The notes: generated from the sequence alone by a model not told the origin. A stretch of 32,000 nt of DNA from Xylella taiwanensis (GCF_013177435.1 NZ_CP053627.1:1560001-1592000); one strand, 5' to 3'. Counted from the first letter of the stretch, positions 25,631 through 32,000 are shown. A program made the numbers and translations.

Positions 25631-26239
25631 TCAGCCAAAGCGGGGCATACTCAACTGCATCAAAAATACCTGCAACAACTGCGGTTCCATACACAACATA
25701 AACACCACACCAAAAGCAGCACCAGAAAGATGTGCACTATGATTAATCCCATCACCGCCGCGGCGCCCCATCCAAATGCTATAACCCACATAAAAAACAG
25801 CGTAAAAAATCGCAGGCGTAGGGATAAAGAACACAACAATTGACGCCCAAGGCTGCAACAATACCGAAGCGAACAACACAGCAGACACAGCCCCTGAAGC
25901 GCCAAGACTCAGATATTGTGGATTTTTCTGGTTCTTGATATAGCTGGGCAGAATCGAAACCAACAGCGCCCCTAAATAAAACAAAGGGTAAGTCAATACG
26001 CTACCAGTGAGCTCACCCATTACTGCCTCAATCATGCGGCCAAAGAAATACAACGTCACCATGTTGAACACCAAATGCGAAACATCGGCATGCACAAAAC
26101 CATAAGTGATCAACCGATCGTATTGGCGATCGCGGTCAACCGCCGGTGGCCAAAAAATCAACCGATCACGCAAACGGCCATTGTTGAAAGCCAACCAGAA
26201 CACCAGCGCATTAATAGCGATCAAAATCAAAGTAATCAT
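25631..26239 (-). CDS. rhomboid-family intramembrane serine protease
   Basis: Six-helix core with catalytic Ser motif LSLGASGAVSAVLF and His motif NHSAHLSGAAFG. I place the start at the internal ATG 26239 (MITLILIAINALVF). The frame stays open to 26431, but that extension is Arg/Leu-rich and unlike the family. Confidence 0.85.
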   Translation of the reverse strand: MITLILIAINALVFWLAFNNGRLRDRLIFWPPAVDRDRQYDRLITYGFVHADVSHLVFNMVTLYFFGRMIEAVMGELTGSVLTYPLFYLGALLVSILPSYIKNQKNPQYLSLGASGAVSAVLFASVLLQPWASIVVFFIPTPAIFYAVFYVGYSIWMGRRGGDGINHSAHLSGAAFGVVFMLCMEPQLLQVFLMQLSMPRFG

Positions 26240-26871
26240 CAAACAGTCCGGAAATGGGGAAAATACCCGCGCAAGCACTCGCAACAACACGCCAGCAATG
26301 CTCAAACAAACCAATAATAGTCGACTATGCAGCAACCGACCGAACACCAACAACGCCAAACAGCGCCCAGCGGCGACGCGGCCTTGCTGAGTAGTGCCCA
26401 CTCCGGCGTCCTTACATACCCCGGCGCGCATCTCATACCAGCGTTGCTACGGTTGTAGCCGTCGCCCAGACGGCGGTAACGGTGGGTGTCTTGGAAGGCC
26501 TTCAATACTGAGGTCACCACCAATGTCGACGATGGAGAGGTCTCAGAAAACGGAAAATAAAGCACGCTAAGCTGATTGCAACAGTCGTAGTGGCCTGAAC
26601 TTGTCCGCACCGATCTTGGCTCTGCTGCGCCAGAGGTCATCGCCATTTAAATTGATGACTCCCAACCAAGCGGCAACAGATACTGCAACAGAGCGTCACC
26701 GTAGATCACGTGACTACGGAAATGCTCGAAACGACTACGAAAAAAATGGCCAACACAGAATGCACCAACCTGATAACAGTTAACGAGCCGCGAAACAAAC
26801 CAACCACATAGCGAAATACACATACTCAACATGCGCGACAGCCTGCACGTGACCTGACCGTCGAAGCCTAG

Positions 26872-26985
26872 CTTCACCACCAAATCGGCGCAGCCTATGA
26901 CGCGCTGAAAGCCGATCCCTCCAAAGCTGTCACCCCTGACCAAGTACGCGTACGCCTCGCCGCAGAACATGCGAAGCCACGATGA
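26872..26985 (+). pseudogene. ParD-like antitoxin C-terminal remnant
   Basis: Frame reads ...RDLTVEA*LHHQIGAAYDALKADPSKAVTPDQVRVRLAAEHAKPR*. Its TGA overlaps the ATG of the downstream ParE remnant (ATGA), as in intact TA operons. The N-terminal RHH part is missing or interrupted by a stop. Confidence 0.35.
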
Positions 26986-27237
26986 GCGACAAGATTGTTG
27001 TTTCGCCAGAGACCGAAAAGCAGCTTGGCGAGCTGTACCGCCACATTGCAACGGCGACTTCACCTGACGTTGCAACTCGCTACACCGAAGCAATCGTCTC
27101 TCCTGAAAGTCTAGACACGTTCCCCCTGCGCGGTACCATGCGCAATCTGGCGTGCGCATCTGGTTTCCATCATCGGCGTGTTCTAAGGCGGCCAAAATTA
27201 CGAAACGATCCTGCACAATCACGATGACGCGAACTAG
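26982..27237 (+). pseudogene. RelE/ParE-family toxin pseudogene
   Basis: MSDKIVVSPETEKQLGELYRHIATATSPDVATRYTEAIVSPESLDTFPLRGTMR matches the N-terminal two thirds of ParE toxins as I recall them (...IAAAASPDIAARYTEAIVSYCESLxTFPHRGTMRDD...). About 30-35 codons then appear deleted. The conserved C-terminus VSIIGVF*GGQNYETILHNHDDAN is found in another frame with a TAA replacing the conserved Tyr. Confidence 0.6.
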
Positions 27238-27346
27238 GACGTGATAAACCTCTTCGCCATTTAGAATCGCATACAAGCACCTGAAAGAAGACAACCCATT
27301 CCGTTTAATCATTCCACTGACGCCGCGTCACCCCAATCAAATCACC

Positions 27347-27727
27347 TCAGGTCCACTCGAAATAAAATTTTCCATTCTCCCCTTTAAGAATCCATACCGC
27401 TTCGCCGGGACACTCATCTGTAAAAAACCAGAGTCCTCCCCCGCCCAGATCAACCTCTTCATCTGAAGCGGGAAATGCTTTTCTAAATAGATCCACTAAT
27501 TCTTCCTTGGTCCCCCTAACAAATTCATCTTTTTTGGCAAGTATCAGATCTCCATCATCAAGTAATTTCCGCAATAAAAACAGGAAATCATTTTTTCTTT
27601 CTCCAAATGAATCCTTATCTACTTGCGCAGGAGAAATTCCATGTACCTCCCCGATATTAAACCAAAGAAAACTTAAAGGATGTCCTGCATCCTCATAAAT
27701 AAAATCTATTTGCTCCTGATTTAACAT
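27347..27727 (-). CDS. CdiI-type immunity protein, cassette 4 (126 aa, most divergent paralog)
   Basis: ATG 27727 lies 4 nt after the toxin-4 stop and is preceded by AGGTGA. MLNQEQIDFIYEDAGHPLSFLWFNIGEVHGISPAQVDKDSFGERKNDFLFLLRKLLDDGDL... is paralogous to the three upstream immunity ORFs. The ORF-track start at 27769 overlaps the toxin in another frame. Confidence 0.75.
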   Translation of the reverse strand: MLNQEQIDFIYEDAGHPLSFLWFNIGEVHGISPAQVDKDSFGERKNDFLFLLRKLLDDGDLILAKKDEFVRGTKEELVDLFRKAFPASDEEVDLGGGGLWFFTDECPGEAVWILKGENGKFYFEWT

Positions 27728-27731
27728 GTAA

Positions 27732-28004
27732 TCACCTGAATTTAAGTTCGACAGATTTTCTATTTGCAACAGGGGTCAAAGAGGGACTATTTAAAATATA
27801 AATCGCCCACCTCGCTTTATTCCATTTTTTTGGAGAAGGAGTAAGAGCCCTCAAATGCAAAATGGTTCCATCATCACATTTAGCCGTATAAAGGCCATGC
27901 TTAACCTCCTTTAAAGGTGCATTTCCTGACAATTGCTGCGCATAGTTTTTAATTTGATCATCGGTTAACACCTGAGAATCAAAAACCCTGAGAGTATCAC
28001 TCAT
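27732..28004 (-). CDS. stand-alone CdiA-CT-type toxin domain, cassette 4 (90 aa)
   Basis: MSDTLRVFDSQVLTDDQIKNYAQQLSGNAPLKEVKHGLYTAKCDDGTILHLRALTPSPKKWNKARWAIYILNSPSLTPVANRKSVELKFR aligns end-to-end with the C-terminal 85 aa of the other three toxin ORFs. It has its own ATG (28004) preceded by ccAGGAGAaagcaat. Confidence 0.7.
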   Translation of the reverse strand: MSDTLRVFDSQVLTDDQIKNYAQQLSGNAPLKEVKHGLYTAKCDDGTILHLRALTPSPKKWNKARWAIYILNSPSLTPVANRKSVELKFR

Positions 28005-28115
28005 ATTGCTTTCTCCTGGAACAATGAACAATGTATGATTTGGTTGACTTGTACAACCACGCCTTCCTATCGGTTCGATTCAACGGCAACGCCTGCAGCA
28101 GTATCGCATGCAGAG

Positions 28116-28263
28116 TTTTTATTCAACAACATTTAAATAAAACCCCAAGATGGGTATTCACCGTCACACCCGCACTGGCACCGGCGCCGTCCCCCCTTGG
28201 GGATGCGGCACCGCTGCAGCAACACCGCTCACCTCAAGAGGCAGTGCAATTACTGAGGCATCA
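28116..28263 (-). repeat. conserved GC-rich palindromic 3' flank of immunity gene (copy B)
   Basis: About 140 nt directly after the cassette-3 immunity stop align by eye with 29775-29908. Shared strings include ccttggggatgcggcaccg, tgcagcaac, ccgctcacctcaagaggcagtgca, catcatcaaaaacacc and ttaaataaaac. Confidence 0.75.
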
Positions 28264-28647
28264 TCAAAAACACCATCCGTAATAATCCTCACCCCCTTCT
28301 TCTCCTTCAAACAACCAGACTGCGACGAATGGACACTCCTCCATCACTAACCAAGTTCCTCTCTCTAGCGCTGCATCCGAGGCAGGAAAACATTGTCTGA
28401 ACCGCTCCACTAGGTCCTCGGTGGAACCCTCCAGGATACGCTCGTCTTTTCTGTGACCAAGCTTCAGCTTGCCCTCATCAAGTAATTTCCCCACTAAAAA
28501 AAAGAAATCATTCTTTCTCTCTTCAAATGAATCCGGATCTATTTGCTGAGGCCCAATTCCATGAGCATCCCCTATATCAAACCAAAGAAAATGCAAAGGA
28601 TGGATTAAATCCTCATAAATAAAATCTATTTGTTCTTGGGTTAACAT
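28264..28647 (-). CDS. CdiI-type immunity protein, cassette 3 (127 aa)
   Basis: ATG 28647 lies 11 nt after the toxin-3 stop, with AGGTAA 4 nt upstream. MLTQEQIDFIYEDLIHPLHFLWFDIGDAHGIGPQQIDPDSFEERKNDFFFLVGKLLDEGKLKLGHRKDERILEGSTEDLVERFRQCFPASDAALERGTWLVMEECPFVAVWLFEGEEGGEDYYGWCF. Confidence 0.8.
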   Translation of the reverse strand: MLTQEQIDFIYEDLIHPLHFLWFDIGDAHGIGPQQIDPDSFEERKNDFFFLVGKLLDEGKLKLGHRKDERILEGSTEDLVERFRQCFPASDAALERGTWLVMEECPFVAVWLFEGEEGGEDYYGWCF

Positions 28648-28658
28648 AAAATTACCTA

Positions 28659-29096
28659 TCACCTGAATTTAAGTTCAACTTTTTGTTGATTTACAACATC
28701 TTTCAAGGCCGGACTATTTCTTATATCAATCGTCCACCTCGCTTTAGTCGCTGCTTCTGAAGAAGACACAGACCTCAAATGTAAAACGGTTCCATCACTC
28801 AGGTCAGCTCTATAAACCCCTGGGCTCATTTGCTTAAAAGGTGCATTTCCTGCCAATTGCTGTGCATAGTCTCTGATGTTCTGATCAGTTAACTTCTGCG
28901 AATCCAACACCTTAGTCGTGCCGCTACTATTACTTCCCCCTTGCACTTTGGGGTCATACGGGGTGGCTTTGAACTCCACGCCTGAAATCACTAATTCATC
29001 CTTTGAGTTACGCTTGCCAAAGAAATCTTTGAACTCGTCAAATCGCTTTTTTTGCTGCTGCGCTAAAACACTGCCAGACGAATGGACACTCCTCAA
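28659..29096 (-). CDS. 5'-truncated CdiA-CT toxin fragment, cassette 3
   Basis: From ...SGSVLAQQQKKRFDEFKDFFGKRNSKDELVISGVEFKATPYDPKVQGGSNSSGTTKVLDSQKLTDQNIRDYAQQLAGNAPFKQMSPGVYRADLSDGTVLHLRSVSSSEAATKARWTIDIRNSPALKDVVNQQKVELKFR it aligns with residues ~240-377 of the cassette-1 toxin. The first ~7 codons (TTG start in the ORF track) are immunity-2 sequence read out of frame. There is no credible own start or RBS. Confidence 0.7.
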   Translation of the reverse strand: MRSVHSSGSVLAQQQKKRFDEFKDFFGKRNSKDELVISGVEFKATPYDPKVQGGSNSSGTTKVLDSQKLTDQNIRDYAQQLAGNAPFKQMSPGVYRADLSDGTVLHLRSVSSSEAATKARWTIDIRNSPALKDVVNQQKVELKFR

Positions 29097-29400
29097 ACAC
29101 TAACCACAGTCCTTTCTCTAGCGCTTCATCCGAATCAGGAAAACAGCTTCTAAACATCTCTACTAACTCCTTGGTAGGCCCCTCCATGATACGCTCGTCC
29201 TTTCTGTGACCAAGCTTAAGTTTGCCCTCATCAAGTAATTTGCCCACTAAAAAAAAGAAATCATTCTTTCTCTCTTCAAATGAATCTTTGTCTATTTGCA
29301 CAGCAGAAATTCCATGTGCATGCCCTACATCAAACCAAAGGGAATCCAAAGCGCCACCTAAATCCTTACAAATAAAATCTATTTGTTCTTGAGTTAACAT
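29038..29400 (-). CDS. CdiI-type immunity protein, cassette 2 (120 aa, chimeric C-terminus)
   Basis: ATG 29400 lies 11 nt after the toxin-2 stop, with GAGGTGA upstream. It is paralogous to immunity 1 and 3 up to ...LWLVFEECPFV, then diverges to WQCFSAAAKKAI* where the paralogs have an acidic tail (A(A/V)WLF...DY(D/G)WCF). Confidence 0.75.
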   Translation of the reverse strand: MLTQEQIDFICKDLGGALDSLWFDVGHAHGISAVQIDKDSFEERKNDFFFLVGKLLDEGKLKLGHRKDERIMEGPTKELVEMFRSCFPDSDEALEKGLWLVFEECPFVWQCFSAAAKKAI

Positions 29401-29411
29401 CCAATCACCTC

Positions 29412-29666
29412 TCACCTAAATTTAAGTTCAACTTTTTTATTTGTAATTTCTCTTAAAGAAGGATTATTGTCTATATCAATCGTCCATCTTGCTTTAGTCA
29501 ATTCATTTGAAGAAGAAACAGACCTCAAAATCACCTGCGTTCCATCACTCAGTTCAGCATTATAAACACCTGGCCTTACCTGCTTTAAAGGCACATCTCC
29601 GGCCAATTGCTGCGCATAGTTTTTAATATCCTGATCAGTTAAGACCTGGGAATCAAATACCTTCAC
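29412..29666 (-). CDS. 5'-truncated CdiA-CT toxin fragment, cassette 2
   Basis: (GTG)KVFDSQVLTDQDIKNYAQQLAGDVPLKQVRPGVYNAELSDGTQVILRSVSSSNELTKARWTIDIDNNPSLREITNKKVELKFR. The frame is open back to a TAG at 29736-29738, and those extra codons (FISGINLKHISPCSEGGSNKAGH) still align with the linker of toxins 1 and 3. No ATG or RBS. Confidence 0.7.
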   Translation of the reverse strand: MKVFDSQVLTDQDIKNYAQQLAGDVPLKQVRPGVYNAELSDGTQVILRSVSSSNELTKARWTIDIDNNPSLREITNKKVELKFR

Positions 29667-29774
29667 ATGACCCGCTTTATTACTTCCCCCTTCGGAGCAG
29701 GGCGAGATATGTTTTAGATTGATACCAGAAATAAACTATTGATTATTTAGGCGACACCAATCAAAAACACTATA

Positions 29775-29908
29775 AATTTATTCAGCAACGCTTAAATAAA
29801 ACACCAGGATAGACGGTAATACCCGCACCGGCACCGCCCCCTTGGGGATGCGGCACCGGTGCAGCAACGCCGCTCACCTCAAGAGGCAGTGCAGTCACGA
29901 AAGCATCA
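29775..29908 (-). repeat. conserved GC-rich palindromic 3' flank of immunity gene (copy A)
   Basis: Directly follows the cassette-1 immunity stop and is homologous to 28116-28263. It contains the near-palindrome gcaccggcaccgc-cccc-tt-gggg-at-gcggcaccggtgc (about 29826-29860; 13-nt arms, 11 of 13 pairable). Confidence 0.75.
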
Positions 29909-30301
29909 TCAAAAACACCAATCGTAATCATCCTCATCAGGTTCTCCTTCTACTTCGGTTTTAAACAACCAGGCTGCGACGAATGGACACTCCTCCATCA
30001 CTAACCAAAGTCCTTCCTTTAGCGCTTCATCCGAATCAGGAAAACATTGTCTGAACCGCTCCACTAGCTCCTCGGTGGAACCCTTCATGATACGCTCGTC
30101 TTTTCTGTTACCAAGCTTCAGCTTGCCCTCATCAAGTAATTTACCCACTAAAAAAAAGAAATCATTCATTCTTTCTTCAAAGGAGTCAGGATCTACTTGA
30201 TCAATAGAAATTCCATGCGCATACCCCACTTTAAACCAAAGAAAATGAAAAGGATGAATTAAATCCTCATAAATAGTATCTATTTGCTCTTGACTTAACA
30301 T
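29909..30301 (-). CDS. CdiI-type immunity protein, cassette 1 (130 aa)
   Basis: ATG 30301 lies 4 nt after the toxin-1 TGA (30306-30308), and AGGTGA is formed by the last toxin codon plus its stop. MLSQEQIDTIYEDLIHPFHFLWFKVGYAHGISIDQVDPDSFEERMNDFFFLVGKLLDEGKLKLGNRKDERIMKGSTEELVERFRQCFPDSDEALKEGLWLVMEECPFVAAWLFKTEVEGEPDEDDYDWCF. The ORF-track start at 30343 overlaps the toxin. Confidence 0.8.
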   Translation of the reverse strand: MLSQEQIDTIYEDLIHPFHFLWFKVGYAHGISIDQVDPDSFEERMNDFFFLVGKLLDEGKLKLGNRKDERIMKGSTEELVERFRQCFPDSDEALKEGLWLVMEECPFVAAWLFKTEVEGEPDEDDYDWCF

Positions 30302-30305
30302 AAAA

Positions 30306-31439
30306 TCACCTGAATTTAATTTCAAAAGTTCTTTGATTTGCAATCTTCTGCAAAGATGGATTGTCTGTTATATCAATCGTCCACCTCGCTTTAGTCGCTG
30401 CTTCTGAAGAAGACACAGACCTCAAACGCACACTGGTTCCATCACTGAGTTTAGCCAGATAAACCCCTGGGCTGACCTGCTTTAAAGGGACATCTCCGGC
30501 CAATTGCTGTGCATAGTTTTTAATTTGATTATCAGTTAATGCCTGTGAATCAAACACCTTCACATTACCCATTCTATTACTTCCTCCTTCAGAGCCGCGC
30601 GGTGTGGCTTTGAACTCCACGCCTCCAACCACTAAGCCATCCTTTGCATTGCCCTTACCAATCACGCCTTTTACGTTATCCAGGCGCTTTATGCGCTGTT
30701 GCTCTAAAACACTGCCAATCGGCTTTGAGGTGAGATCAGGCCCTTTAGGATTGTGTGCAATTTGATCAAGGGCTTGTTTCTCGGCTTTGGCAATGTCATC
30801 GGCTTTGCCGGAGATCCAGCGACCGCCGATTTTGGCCGCTCTCACGCCGTATTTGGCCAGGTTGCCGATCATCACCGAGGCGATGTATTCCTCGCCTTTT
30901 TCTAGGGCCACTTGTTCTATGGTCTTTTCCCCTGAACGAATCGCTTTGATGTCTTGCCAGGCGTCATAGGCGGTCAGGCCTTTATCGGCTAACCAAAGGG
31001 CCCCAATAAGCACGGGGACGAAGACCGCGTTGTTTTCGGTTTCTAGGCGGGCTGCTGCACTGCTCACCGCCGCGTCGCCACCGGCGGCGGCGGTGATGCC
31101 GGCCACCAGGCTGGTGACGGTATCGGTGCGCTGTTGTTTTTCCGCGGCGCTCAGGCTGGCGACGTCGGCGCCGGTGGTGCGGTCTAGTAGGTTATTGATG
31201 ACCACGGCCGCCGCCGCGCCAGTCGCGCCGGCGCCGCACCCTTGGCCTTGGGCGGCAGCACCAGCGCAGCCCAGCAGGCCTTGCAGGGCGGCACGGGCCG
31301 GTTCGCTGTCTAGTTGGTCGGCCAGTGTTTTGACTTGGCTGGCGCCTAGGCTTTGCAGGTAGTTAACCGCAGCGCCTTGAAGCATTTGGGTGGCGCTACC
31401 GGTCACGTGGCTGCCAGCGGCCAGGTTCAGGGCGGTCAC
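30306..31439 (-). CDS. orphan cdiA-CT: pre-toxin region, ETENN boundary, ~155-aa middle domain and ~85-aa toxin tip (5'-truncated CdiA/hemagglutinin-type exoprotein)
   Basis: The Gly/Ala-rich region GLLGCAGAAAQGQGCGAGATGAAAAVVINNLL...AAARLETENNAV resembles the pre-toxin (PT-VENN type) domain of CdiA/TpsA proteins. The ETENN codons are at 31029-31043. GC content drops visibly after the motif. The ORF-track start is a GTG; the frame is open to 31505, is preceded by in-frame TGA (31506-31508) and TAG (31533-31535), and has no secretion (TPS) domain or FHA repeats. Confidence 0.8.
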   Translation of the reverse strand: MTALNLAAGSHVTGSATQMLQGAAVNYLQSLGASQVKTLADQLDSEPARAALQGLLGCAGAAAQGQGCGAGATGAAAAVVINNLLDRTTGADVASLSAAEKQQRTDTVTSLVAGITAAAGGDAAVSSAAARLETENNAVFVPVLIGALWLADKGLTAYDAWQDIKAIRSGEKTIEQVALEKGEEYIASVMIGNLAKYGVRAAKIGGRWISGKADDIAKAEKQALDQIAHNPKGPDLTSKPIGSVLEQQRIKRLDNVKGVIGKGNAKDGLVVGGVEFKATPRGSEGGSNRMGNVKVFDSQALTDNQIKNYAQQLAGDVPLKQVSPGVYLAKLSDGTSVRLRSVSSSEAATKARWTIDITDNPSLQKIANQRTFEIKFR

Positions 31440-31494
31440 AATCGTTCTGCCGGTGCCGCCTACGTCCCAGGTGGCGTTGTCTTGGAGGCGTTGG

Positions 31495-31560
31495 TGTAGG
31501 GCCGCTCAGGGCCGGGTCAGGCTACCGCCGCCCTACCCTTGGGCGGCAGCGCAGCTCAGA
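31495..31560 (-). repeat. possible degenerate third copy of the post-immunity GC-rich element
   Basis: ctaccgccgccc-taccctt-gggcggcagc forms a hairpin and resembles the gccgc..cccaaggg..ggcgg core of copies A and B. The alignment is short and by eye only. Confidence 0.25.
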
Positions 31561-31590
31561 TTTAGTTCTTTTACTCAATGCATGATTTTT

Positions 31591-32000
31591 CTAACGCACC
31601 TCACTTGGAATCTGCGTCTCTGGCTTGCGGTATGAATGCAGTTTTCTTTCAAATTCCCAGGGCTTTAAAGGCTTTAGTTCATCCTCCATTTCCATTTCTT
31701 TATAAACCCATTGTTGAGTTTTTTTAATAGCATCAAGAAATTCTTGATCTAATGTCCACGCCTTGGAGTGAATCACCCAGGGATTTTCTCGATATAAAGC
31801 AAGTGTGACGTCGAAGGACTGCTCTATAGTATCTTTACCTTCATACCGGGCGATGAGGCTGTCAATCTCTGGCAAAAAATAACACAGCGCTAATTCCTGT
31901 TCCGGCACCATCATCCGGGTGTCCGTATCAAGGGTTTGTCCATATGGCTCCTTCAGAAGCAGATCAACACCAATGACAAAAATGAAATGCTTTGATGAAA
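31591..32000 (-). CDS. hypothetical protein, probable immunity protein of the upstream (off-window) CdiA-CT; partial
   Basis: The frame is open from the window edge to the TAG at 31591-31593: ...SSKHFIFVIGVDLLLKEPYGQTLDTDTRMMVPEQELALCYFLPEIDSLIARYEGKDTIEQSFDVTLALYRENPWVIHSKAWTLDQEFLDAIKKTQQWVYKEMEMEDELKPLKPWEFERKLHSYRKPETQIPSEVR. AT-rich, acidic, and unrelated to the MLxQEQID family. It sits immediately 5' of the orphan array. ATG candidates are at 31914 and 31911, but the true start may lie beyond the window. Confidence 0.5.
   Translation of the reverse strand, partial: SSKHFIFVIGVDLLLKEPYGQTLDTDTRMMVPEQELALCYFLPEIDSLIARYEGKDTIEQSFDVTLALYRENPWVIHSKAWTLDQEFLDAIKKTQQWVYKEMEMEDELKPLKPWEFERKLHSYRKPETQIPSEVR

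Follow-up and report, generated by a model that had tools for sequence, protein, structure and literature searches.

The 32,000-nt stretch of the Xylella taiwanensis genome analysed here (GCF_013177435.1, NZ_CP053627.1:1560001-1592000, hereafter the window) carries four toxin/immunity cassettes, which span positions 27347-31439 on the minus strand in open reading frame (ORF) calls on the window. We consider it likely, from the sequence evidence set out below, that they form the end of an island of orphan contact-dependent growth inhibition (CDI) toxin-tip/immunity cassettes of one family, in which an acidic immunity protein would counter each cognate toxin and which would serve as recombination stock and for protection. 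A preliminary description of the same DNA had proposed four minus-strand toxin/immunity ORF pairs, and all four were found where it had placed them. The interval 27347-31439 is identical to CP087686.1. The system is of a known kind; what is unusual is its single-family make-up, since one toxin/DUF596 family accounts for six of the eight pairs in the X. taiwanensis island, and the array runs on beyond the window.

Organization of the cassettes

Each cassette is a 3' piece of a cdiA gene, encoding all or part of a basic toxin domain of ~138 aa, together with a DUF596 gene. The parts of the array are as follows, where L001 is a longer X. taiwanensis locus that reaches 8 kb past the window end.

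30306-31439, minus strand: T1, orphan cdiA 3' fragment, 377 aa, with pre-toxin region, ETENN (31029-31043), 74-aa entry domain (30807-31028), linker and complete toxin domain (~138 aa, 30309-30722)
30797-31519, minus strand: 5' homology arm of T1 (cdiA pre-toxin, ETENN, entry domain), 97.2% identical to L001 3004-3728
29909-30301, minus strand: I1, DUF596 / Imm-NMB0513, 130 aa, pI (isoelectric point) 4.3, identical to P0119, 'DUF596 domain-containing protein [Xylella taiwanensis]', PF04591
29667-29908, minus strand: spacer element 3' of I1, sharing 74-87% identity with those that follow Im2, Im1 and I3
29412-29666, minus strand: T2, 5'-truncated toxin fragment, 84-aa ORF, homology from ~29699 at GGSN, 100% identical to the X. 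taiwanensis protein P0002
29038-29400, minus strand: I2, DUF596 with its 3' end replaced, family homology confined to 29077-29400, P0124, on 32 contigs
28659-29096, minus strand: T3, 145-aa ORF with complete toxin domain (28662-29075), without pre-toxin or entry region, fused into the 3' end of I2, 99% identical to P0001
28264-28647, minus strand: I3, DUF596, 127 aa, PF04591 at 24.9 bits, P0118
28032-28263, minus strand: second copy of the spacer element, from the DNA repeat families and the spacer alignment
27732-28004, minus strand: T4, 5'-truncated and the most divergent of the toxin fragments, 90 aa if counted from the annotated ATG at 28004 (ORF to 28031, 99 aa), 100% identical to the X. 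taiwanensis protein P0007
27347-27727, minus strand: I4, DUF596, 126 aa, last gene of the array, PF04591 at E=2.8e-10 and 40.7 bits, P0122

The distance from toxin stop to immunity ATG is 4, 11, 11 and 4 nt in cassettes 1 to 4, and the pI of the immunity proteins is 4.3-4.8, in line with the earlier account of gaps of 4-11 nt followed by acidic ORFs that begin MLxQEQID. Over the 84-aa module at the end of the toxin, identity is 76% for T1 and T2, 68% for T1 and T3, 69% for T2 and T3 and 56-59% for T4 versus the others, so that toxins 1-3 are indeed the closer set and toxin 4 the more distant one. Among the immunity proteins I1-I3 are 71-79% identical, and I4 is 54-59% identical to them. DNA repeat families with three to four copies, 68-86% identical, recur across the array, which indicates that the array did not arise by chance.

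The Gly/Ala-rich stretch of T1 that holds ETENN partially matches PF04830 (DUF637). The first copy had been described as still fused to a pre-toxin region ending in ETENN; the fusion and the motif are there, but T1 is itself an orphan fragment and not the tail of a long cdiA gene. ETENN is a VENN-type boundary, for which relatives have ALDNN or AVDNN; T2, T3 and T4 have none because they are truncated. The junction of cassettes 2 and 3 has been rearranged further. Homology of I2 to its family ends at ECPFV (29077) and the T3 domain opens at 29075 in another frame, so that I2 is chimeric. The coincidence of the two positions indicates that a deletion fused the two genes at the expense of the end of I2.

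A Shine-Dalgarno-like AGGTGA or AGGTAA lies ahead of every immunity ATG. For I1 and I4 the AGGTGA is made by the last codon and stop of the toxin gene (30306-30311 and 27732-27737), with the immunity ATG 4 nt on, and for I2 (GAGGTGA) and I3 (AGGTAA) it lies just downstream of the toxin stop. Since the last toxin codon and stop (AGG TGA) thereby double as the immunity Shine-Dalgarno sequence, conservation of the C-terminal K-F-R may partly reflect a constraint on RNA rather than on protein. Among the toxin ORFs T4 alone comes with an ATG and a Shine-Dalgarno sequence, AGGAGA; T1-T3 have no such signals, the GTG of T2 being without a Shine-Dalgarno sequence. Downstream of four of the six DUF596 genes of the island lies a conserved spacer of 140-240 nt that contains two hairpins; two of the four copies are at L001 5482-5630 and 7694-7851. 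One of the hairpins is long and GC-rich, and the other is AT-rich with 9 bp, TTTATTCAA...TTGAATAAA. No covariation or compensatory changes were found among the spacer copies (74-87% identical), and promoter and terminator scans stayed at chance level; a terminator, a recombination site and a relic are candidate roles for this element.

The immunity family

Assignment of the downstream ORFs to the DUF596 / Imm-NMB0513 immunity proteins is supported by profile matches, as had been suspected. I4 passes the gathering score of PF04591 (40.7 bits versus 25), I3, I1 and I2 fall just below it in a scan of the long ORFs (24.9, 22.6 and 20.0 bits), and PF04591 matches are precomputed for the exact database copies of all four, P0118, P0119, P0122 and P0124. 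A profile of I1-I4 searched against the PDB matches 2o5h_A (2O5H) with E=1.5e-6 over residues 54-133, and W36, W113 and W142 are invariant in the immunity alignment. X. taiwanensis has at least nine DUF596 clusters differing by >10%. Imm-NMB0513 has been described as a winged-helix immunity family whose partners are Ntox20 in beta- and gammaproteobacteria and Ntox7 in betaproteobacteria (Zhang et al. 2012, PMC3482391).

The toxin domain

The toxin domain is ~138 aa long rather than the 85 aa first proposed. Homology between T1 and T3 runs ~54 aa upstream of the 85-aa block, and conservation across the family opens near PIGSVLEQQ, ~54 residues ahead of that block. In the AlphaFold2 model of a 153-aa T1 stretch (predicted local distance difference test score, pLDDT, 86; predicted template-modelling score, pTM, 0.80) an alpha-beta module is preceded by a long helix, a hairpin and a strand, and the C-terminal 84 aa modelled alone (pLDDT 88.5, pTM 0.79) are predicted to be alpha+beta, with one helix followed by antiparallel strands.

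Profile searches identified the immunity family as PF04591 and left the toxin without a match: Pfam, NCBIfam and PADLOC scans of the toxin ORFs gave nothing meaningful, nor did profiles against the PDB (see below). Relatives are nevertheless numerous. A word-indexed search found 117, mainly Xylella proteins named 'hemagglutinin' or 'DUF769 domain-containing protein', with others from E. coli, Salmonella, Yersinia, Serratia, Klebsiella, Ralstonia, Microvirgula and Herbaspirillum. An exhaustive profile search returned 260 representatives at 50% clustering, many of which are the C-termini of 1000-2500-aa proteins with Fil_haemagg_2, PT-VENN or DUF637, and one of which, from the Bacteroidota genus Emticicia, is a PKD protein. 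A scan of a genome collection with the family alignment found four enterobacterial and Rhizobium loci and none from Xylella. The position of the module at the end of such proteins, including a 3539-aa protein of X. fastidiosa, supports its identification as the C-terminal toxin domain of two-partner secretion (TPS)/filamentous-haemagglutinin (CdiA-type) proteins, and the earlier reading of the module as a CdiA-CT tip stands. The Arg of the LR motif is invariant in all 260 representatives. Also invariant, or nearly so, are the S-x-S after this Arg, the Trp in (R/K)WT and, at the very end, E-x-K-F-(R/K). We propose that function may depend on the invariant Arg and on the C-terminal E-x-K-F-(R/K).

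The DUF769 name on these proteins was examined as a possible assignment and rejected. PF05590 (DUF769) has no match at E<=1 to the toxin ORFs or their close homologues, and the hhalign probability is 0.2%. It matches instead a 273-aa lipoprotein upstream of the island (E=3e-107), which is unrelated to the toxin. The NCBI name on the toxin ORFs is misleading, and the E. coli literature has inherited the label. At L001 1-1273 there are two tandem lipoprotein genes of ~270 aa each that match the current Pfam DUF769 model.

The weakest step in our interpretation is the activity of the toxin, which probably acts on a cytoplasmic target, a nucleic acid, to judge from its charge and its shared entry domain. 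The toxin has a charge of +8 and a pI of ~10, against -18 and 4.3 for the immunity protein. The entry domain of T1 is common to the Endonuclease_NS_2 DNase toxin of the same island, and in the established model CdiA-CT regions are modular; together these argue for cytoplasmic delivery. A database search with the ETENN and entry-domain segment gave no candidates, so that modularity of the entry domain is read from comparison within the locus. An ionophore or membrane toxin was rejected, as both partners are soluble, the toxin being basic and the immunity proteins acidic. We also rejected an ADP-ribosyltransferase-like R...STS...E, which found no Foldseek match and whose motif spacing and domain size do not fit.

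Recombination and selection

T1 and the 982-aa cdiA fragment that lies 5.8 kb upstream of it are 97.2% identical over 725 nt (30797-31519). Within this arm lie the pre-toxin region, ETENN and 74 aa that open with AVFVPVLIG and close with GRWISG, after which the two sequences diverge. Between cassettes, sliding-window comparison shows a mosaic of identity, with identical pair-specific tracts of 41-71 nt beside windows of ~60-75%. Examples are tracts of 59 nt in C1-C3 and 71 nt in Cm2-C1 (p<=0.0035 by column shuffling, a test that disregards uneven constraint between sites). Such tracts point to gene conversion among the cassettes, of which they would be expected. The ratio of non-synonymous to synonymous substitution (dN/dS) ranges from 0.35 to 1.09 in the toxin modules; in the immunity genes it is 0.26-0.62, which indicates that these genes are under selection, although a ratio <1 overall is no sign of diversifying selection. 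Variation is concentrated in toxin aa 105-132 and in immunity aa 9-36 and 94-104, on either side of the conserved junction of stop, Shine-Dalgarno sequence and start.

We tentatively raise the possibility that the arrays of Xylella act to generate diversity in a soluble CDI toxin whose fold has not been seen before, with silent cassettes donating segments by gene conversion. The truncated silent cassettes would convert each other and the 3' end of an expressed hxf/cdiA gene, for which the pilS cassettes that feed pilE in Neisseria offer a parallel. A conserved junction of ~200 nt separates the hypervariable toxin aa 105-132 from the hypervariable immunity aa 9-36, so that a single conversion tract could carry both halves of the interface. 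CDI nuclease families have been reported to be >90% identical within a type (PMC11630599). If true, a diversity generator of this kind would account for the polymorphism of the soluble toxin family.

Genomic context of the array

In X. taiwanensis the island begins, in L001, with a 982-aa cdiA fragment that consists of haemagglutinin repeats, ETENN, the entry domain and an Endonuclease_NS_2 toxin; it is preceded by lipoprotein genes and followed by a 141-aa immunity gene for that toxin. Then come a toxin piece of 109 aa with a DUF596 gene, a 436-aa orphan with an ALDNN boundary, another entry region and the same toxin family as T1-T4, also with a DUF596 gene, an unrelated 104-aa/182-aa pair, the four cassettes of the window, a degenerate ParE-like ORF and a rhomboid protease gene. 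No cdiB gene was seen in any stretch examined.

This island is syntenic with a locus of X. fastidiosa that lies behind a full-length haemagglutinin/CdiA gene. There a 3539-aa haemagglutinin with ESPR and TPS domains ends in AVDNN, an entry region and a toxin domain of the T1-T4 type; a DUF596 gene is next, and five to six more toxin/DUF596 cassettes, variously truncated, lead up to the rhomboid gene. With the X. fastidiosa array built from this family too, the single-family array is a feature of the genus, and the X. taiwanensis island is a version that has lost the expressed gene. The rhomboid-family protease gene (25631-26431, minus strand, in the window) closes the island in both species, which places the island at a conserved chromosomal position.

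The window ends within the unrelated pair, of which it holds the following part.

31591-32000, minus strand: 3' part of the 182-aa gene, which starts outside the window and has a 4-nt overlap (ATGA) with the 104-aa gene; the pair is at L001 7852-8711

The portion in the window is the last 107 codons of this gene (the '107-aa ORF' 31591-31914). Pfam and PADLOC found no match for the 104-aa/182-aa pair, which we regard as another putative toxin-end/immunity pair, of an unrelated family. At the other end of the array, between I4 and the rhomboid gene, an 81-aa ORF (26982-27227, plus strand) has a weak match to ParE toxins (E=5e-4, under the gathering score), and beside it lies a 107-aa ORF (26647-26970, minus strand) that could not be assigned; the two may be a decayed toxin-antitoxin module. 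G+C content is 42-45% across the cassettes (27000-31000) versus ~50-60% in most of the window, and 56% at 31001-32000, the pre-toxin region. From 900 to 25129 the window contains housekeeping genes, among them those for a Tex-like protein, an MFS transporter, a LysR regulator, a TPR protein, leucyl-tRNA synthetase, DNA polymerase III delta, an SLT_2 lytic transglycosylase and a DPBB/SPOR protein.

Possible function of the array and alternative explanations

In the mechanism that we propose, each acidic immunity protein would bind and block its cognate toxin variant, and the toxin would act in the cytoplasm of the target cell. The orphan toxin pieces would not be deployed from the array, because they have no secretion domain. 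They would instead be material for recombination with an expressed cdiA gene through the 725-nt, 97%-identical pre-toxin/entry arm. Segmental gene conversion within toxin and immunity genes would be a second route, and would explain the identical tracts that are specific to pairs of cassettes. The intact immunity genes would shield the cell from toxin variants that neighbouring Xylella cells deliver.

Several observations weigh against this proposal. Full-length cdiA and cdiB adjoin the island nowhere in X. taiwanensis; its first gene is the 982-aa cdiA fragment without a TPS domain, which makes local deployment of the toxin in this species impossible. The toxin domain is complete in T1 and T3; T2 and T4 begin at the GGSN/GESN linker, which leaves the C-terminal two thirds or so, and I2 is short of ~22 C-terminal residues. 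The limits noted above for the column-shuffling test and for dN/dS belong here as well. A Foldseek search of the PDB with the 153-aa and 84-aa models gave nothing at E<0.1 (the best match was EspG, E=0.11), and one of the BFVD with the full model gave no match below E=0.1, so that a nucleic-acid target is something we infer and not something that a fold match tells us. The upstream fragment without a TPS domain, the 5' truncation of T2 and T4, the 3' truncation of I2 and the promoter and terminator signals, which do not rise above chance, would also be expected if the array were inert debris, the leftovers of recombination at a cdiA locus since lost, with its toxin pieces and immunity genes idle. 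This we hold to be improbable: five of the island's six DUF596 ORFs have their full length and keep the conserved start codon and Shine-Dalgarno sequence, the dN/dS of the immunity genes is not ~1, these genes are intact and identical in 32 assemblies, and the organization is kept in X. fastidiosa behind an intact haemagglutinin.

Other explanations concern the nature of the toxin and of the pairs. The preliminary description had suggested an RNase of the BECR (barnase/EndoU/colicin E5-D/RelE) fold, in which case the toxin could be kin of Ntox7, a listed partner of Imm-NMB0513. The module is small, basic and alpha+beta, its DGT...LR...N loosely resembles the Ntox7 motif 'DGx+xhR, N' (PMC3482391), and the RelE-family HigB2 and also HP0894 occur far down the Foldseek list. 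The match to HigB2, however, has E=0.6, a template-modelling (TM) score of 0.23 and a root mean square deviation of 12 Å, both confident models (pLDDT 86 and 88) are without a significant PDB match, and a sequence-profile search of the PDB with the toxin was empty but for a chance match (E=0.59). The spacing of DGTxxxLR is unlike that of the 7-residue Ntox7 motif, and in gammaproteobacteria Imm-NMB0513 is paired with Ntox20, not Ntox7, in the table of Zhang et al. (PMC3482391). The two Foldseek searches thus lend the BECR fold no support, and as Foldseek is weak on small domains its absence is unproven; we regard the proposal as doubtful. We find it highly improbable that the pairs, T4/I4 especially, are free-standing modules like those of toxin-antitoxin systems, active in addiction or phage defence independently of CDI. 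It is true that T4 has translation signals of its own, that the 84-aa module is predicted to fold alone, that the immunity family has a winged-helix fold (PMC3482391) and that a degenerate ParE-like ORF adjoins the array. But members of the toxin family sit overwhelmingly at the C-terminal end of proteins with haemagglutinin repeats, PADLOC matches none of the pairs, gene order and VENN-type junctions are those of polymorphic toxins, and T2 and T3 have no translation signals.

If these are orphan CDI cassettes, as we consider likely, they bear on the biology of Xylella haemagglutinins. HxfA and HxfB have been studied as adhesins and as 'antivirulence' factors of a quarantine plant pathogen. 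Full-length Xylella haemagglutinins of the Hxf type would carry a CDI toxin family of which every genome examined keeps diverged toxin/immunity variants, and mixed infections and biofilms, in xylem as in insect vectors, could be shaped by antagonism between strains or by kin recognition. The toxin family, whose 260 clusters at 50% identity include members from Xylella, E. coli, Serratia, Ralstonia and a Bacteroidota species, has no solved relative and is a target for structural work, and six related but distinct pairs in one locus are a natural series for mapping toxin-immunity specificity. The points of interest are therefore the toxin family without a structural relative, the link to Hxf-type proteins and the signs of segmental recombination in a single-family array.

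Comparison with known systems

Xylella haemagglutinins have already been counted among probable CdiA proteins in reviews (PMC5422565); our literature search found no paper on the toxin family of these haemagglutinins or on the arrays. The preliminary description could assign no activity to the toxin, and neither can we, but the family itself had probably been catalogued: one of the 21 E. coli CdiA-CT types of Halvorsen et al. 2024 is 'toxin type 1, DUF769, activity unknown, entry domain #11' (PMC11630599). By homology the Xylella toxin family is probably this E. coli CdiA-CT type 1, the two being linked through the DUF769 name and the homologues and not through EHW54111.1 (DEC9E CdiA) itself. 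The E. coli homologues P0043-P0054 are 47-62% identical to the Xylella toxins, some are named 'DUF769 domain-containing protein' by NCBI, and they have a DUF596 partner directly downstream; they also occur as orphan ORFs of ~85 aa on hundreds of contigs. The arrangement differs, as in E. coli there is a single cassette in a mixed orphan array behind an Endonuclease_NS_2 CdiA, whereas Xylella has four to seven diverged variants per locus. The toxin is probably also the Ntox20 of Zhang et al. 2012, to judge from the partner table and the description given there. The Ntox20/Imm-NMB0513 systems of Neisseria tpsA/maf islands share the immunity family (DUF596, 2O5H), and Ntox20 is described as mostly beta with one conserved Arg, and as occurring in gammaproteobacteria in type V secretion systems with filamentous haemagglutinin repeats.

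In their architecture the cassettes resemble the E. coli EC869 arrays and the tpsC cassettes of N. meningitidis, which likewise consist of 5'-truncated 3' fragments of cdiA, each with its own immunity gene, and have pre-toxin homology as a recombination arm. Arrays of the EC869 and tpsC types mix unrelated toxin families. The Xylella array is in contrast dominated by one family, and several of its cassettes have no pre-toxin arm, so that these could recombine inside the toxin domain only. That all four cassettes belong to one family had been presented as a peculiarity; the single family is there, but homogeneous loci are established as polyimmunity loci and in Xylella are the rule. Such loci have been described for SUKH, Imm6, Imm11, Imm28, Imm33, Imm36 and Imm41, and DUF596 is absent from the families listed (Zhang et al. 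2012, PMC3482391). They too have tandem, co-oriented paralogous immunity genes, which are thought to pre-empt the toxin variants of non-kin. The Xylella immunity genes, however, each keep a piece of the cognate toxin gene, which makes the locus an array of orphan cassettes and not an operon of immunity genes only.

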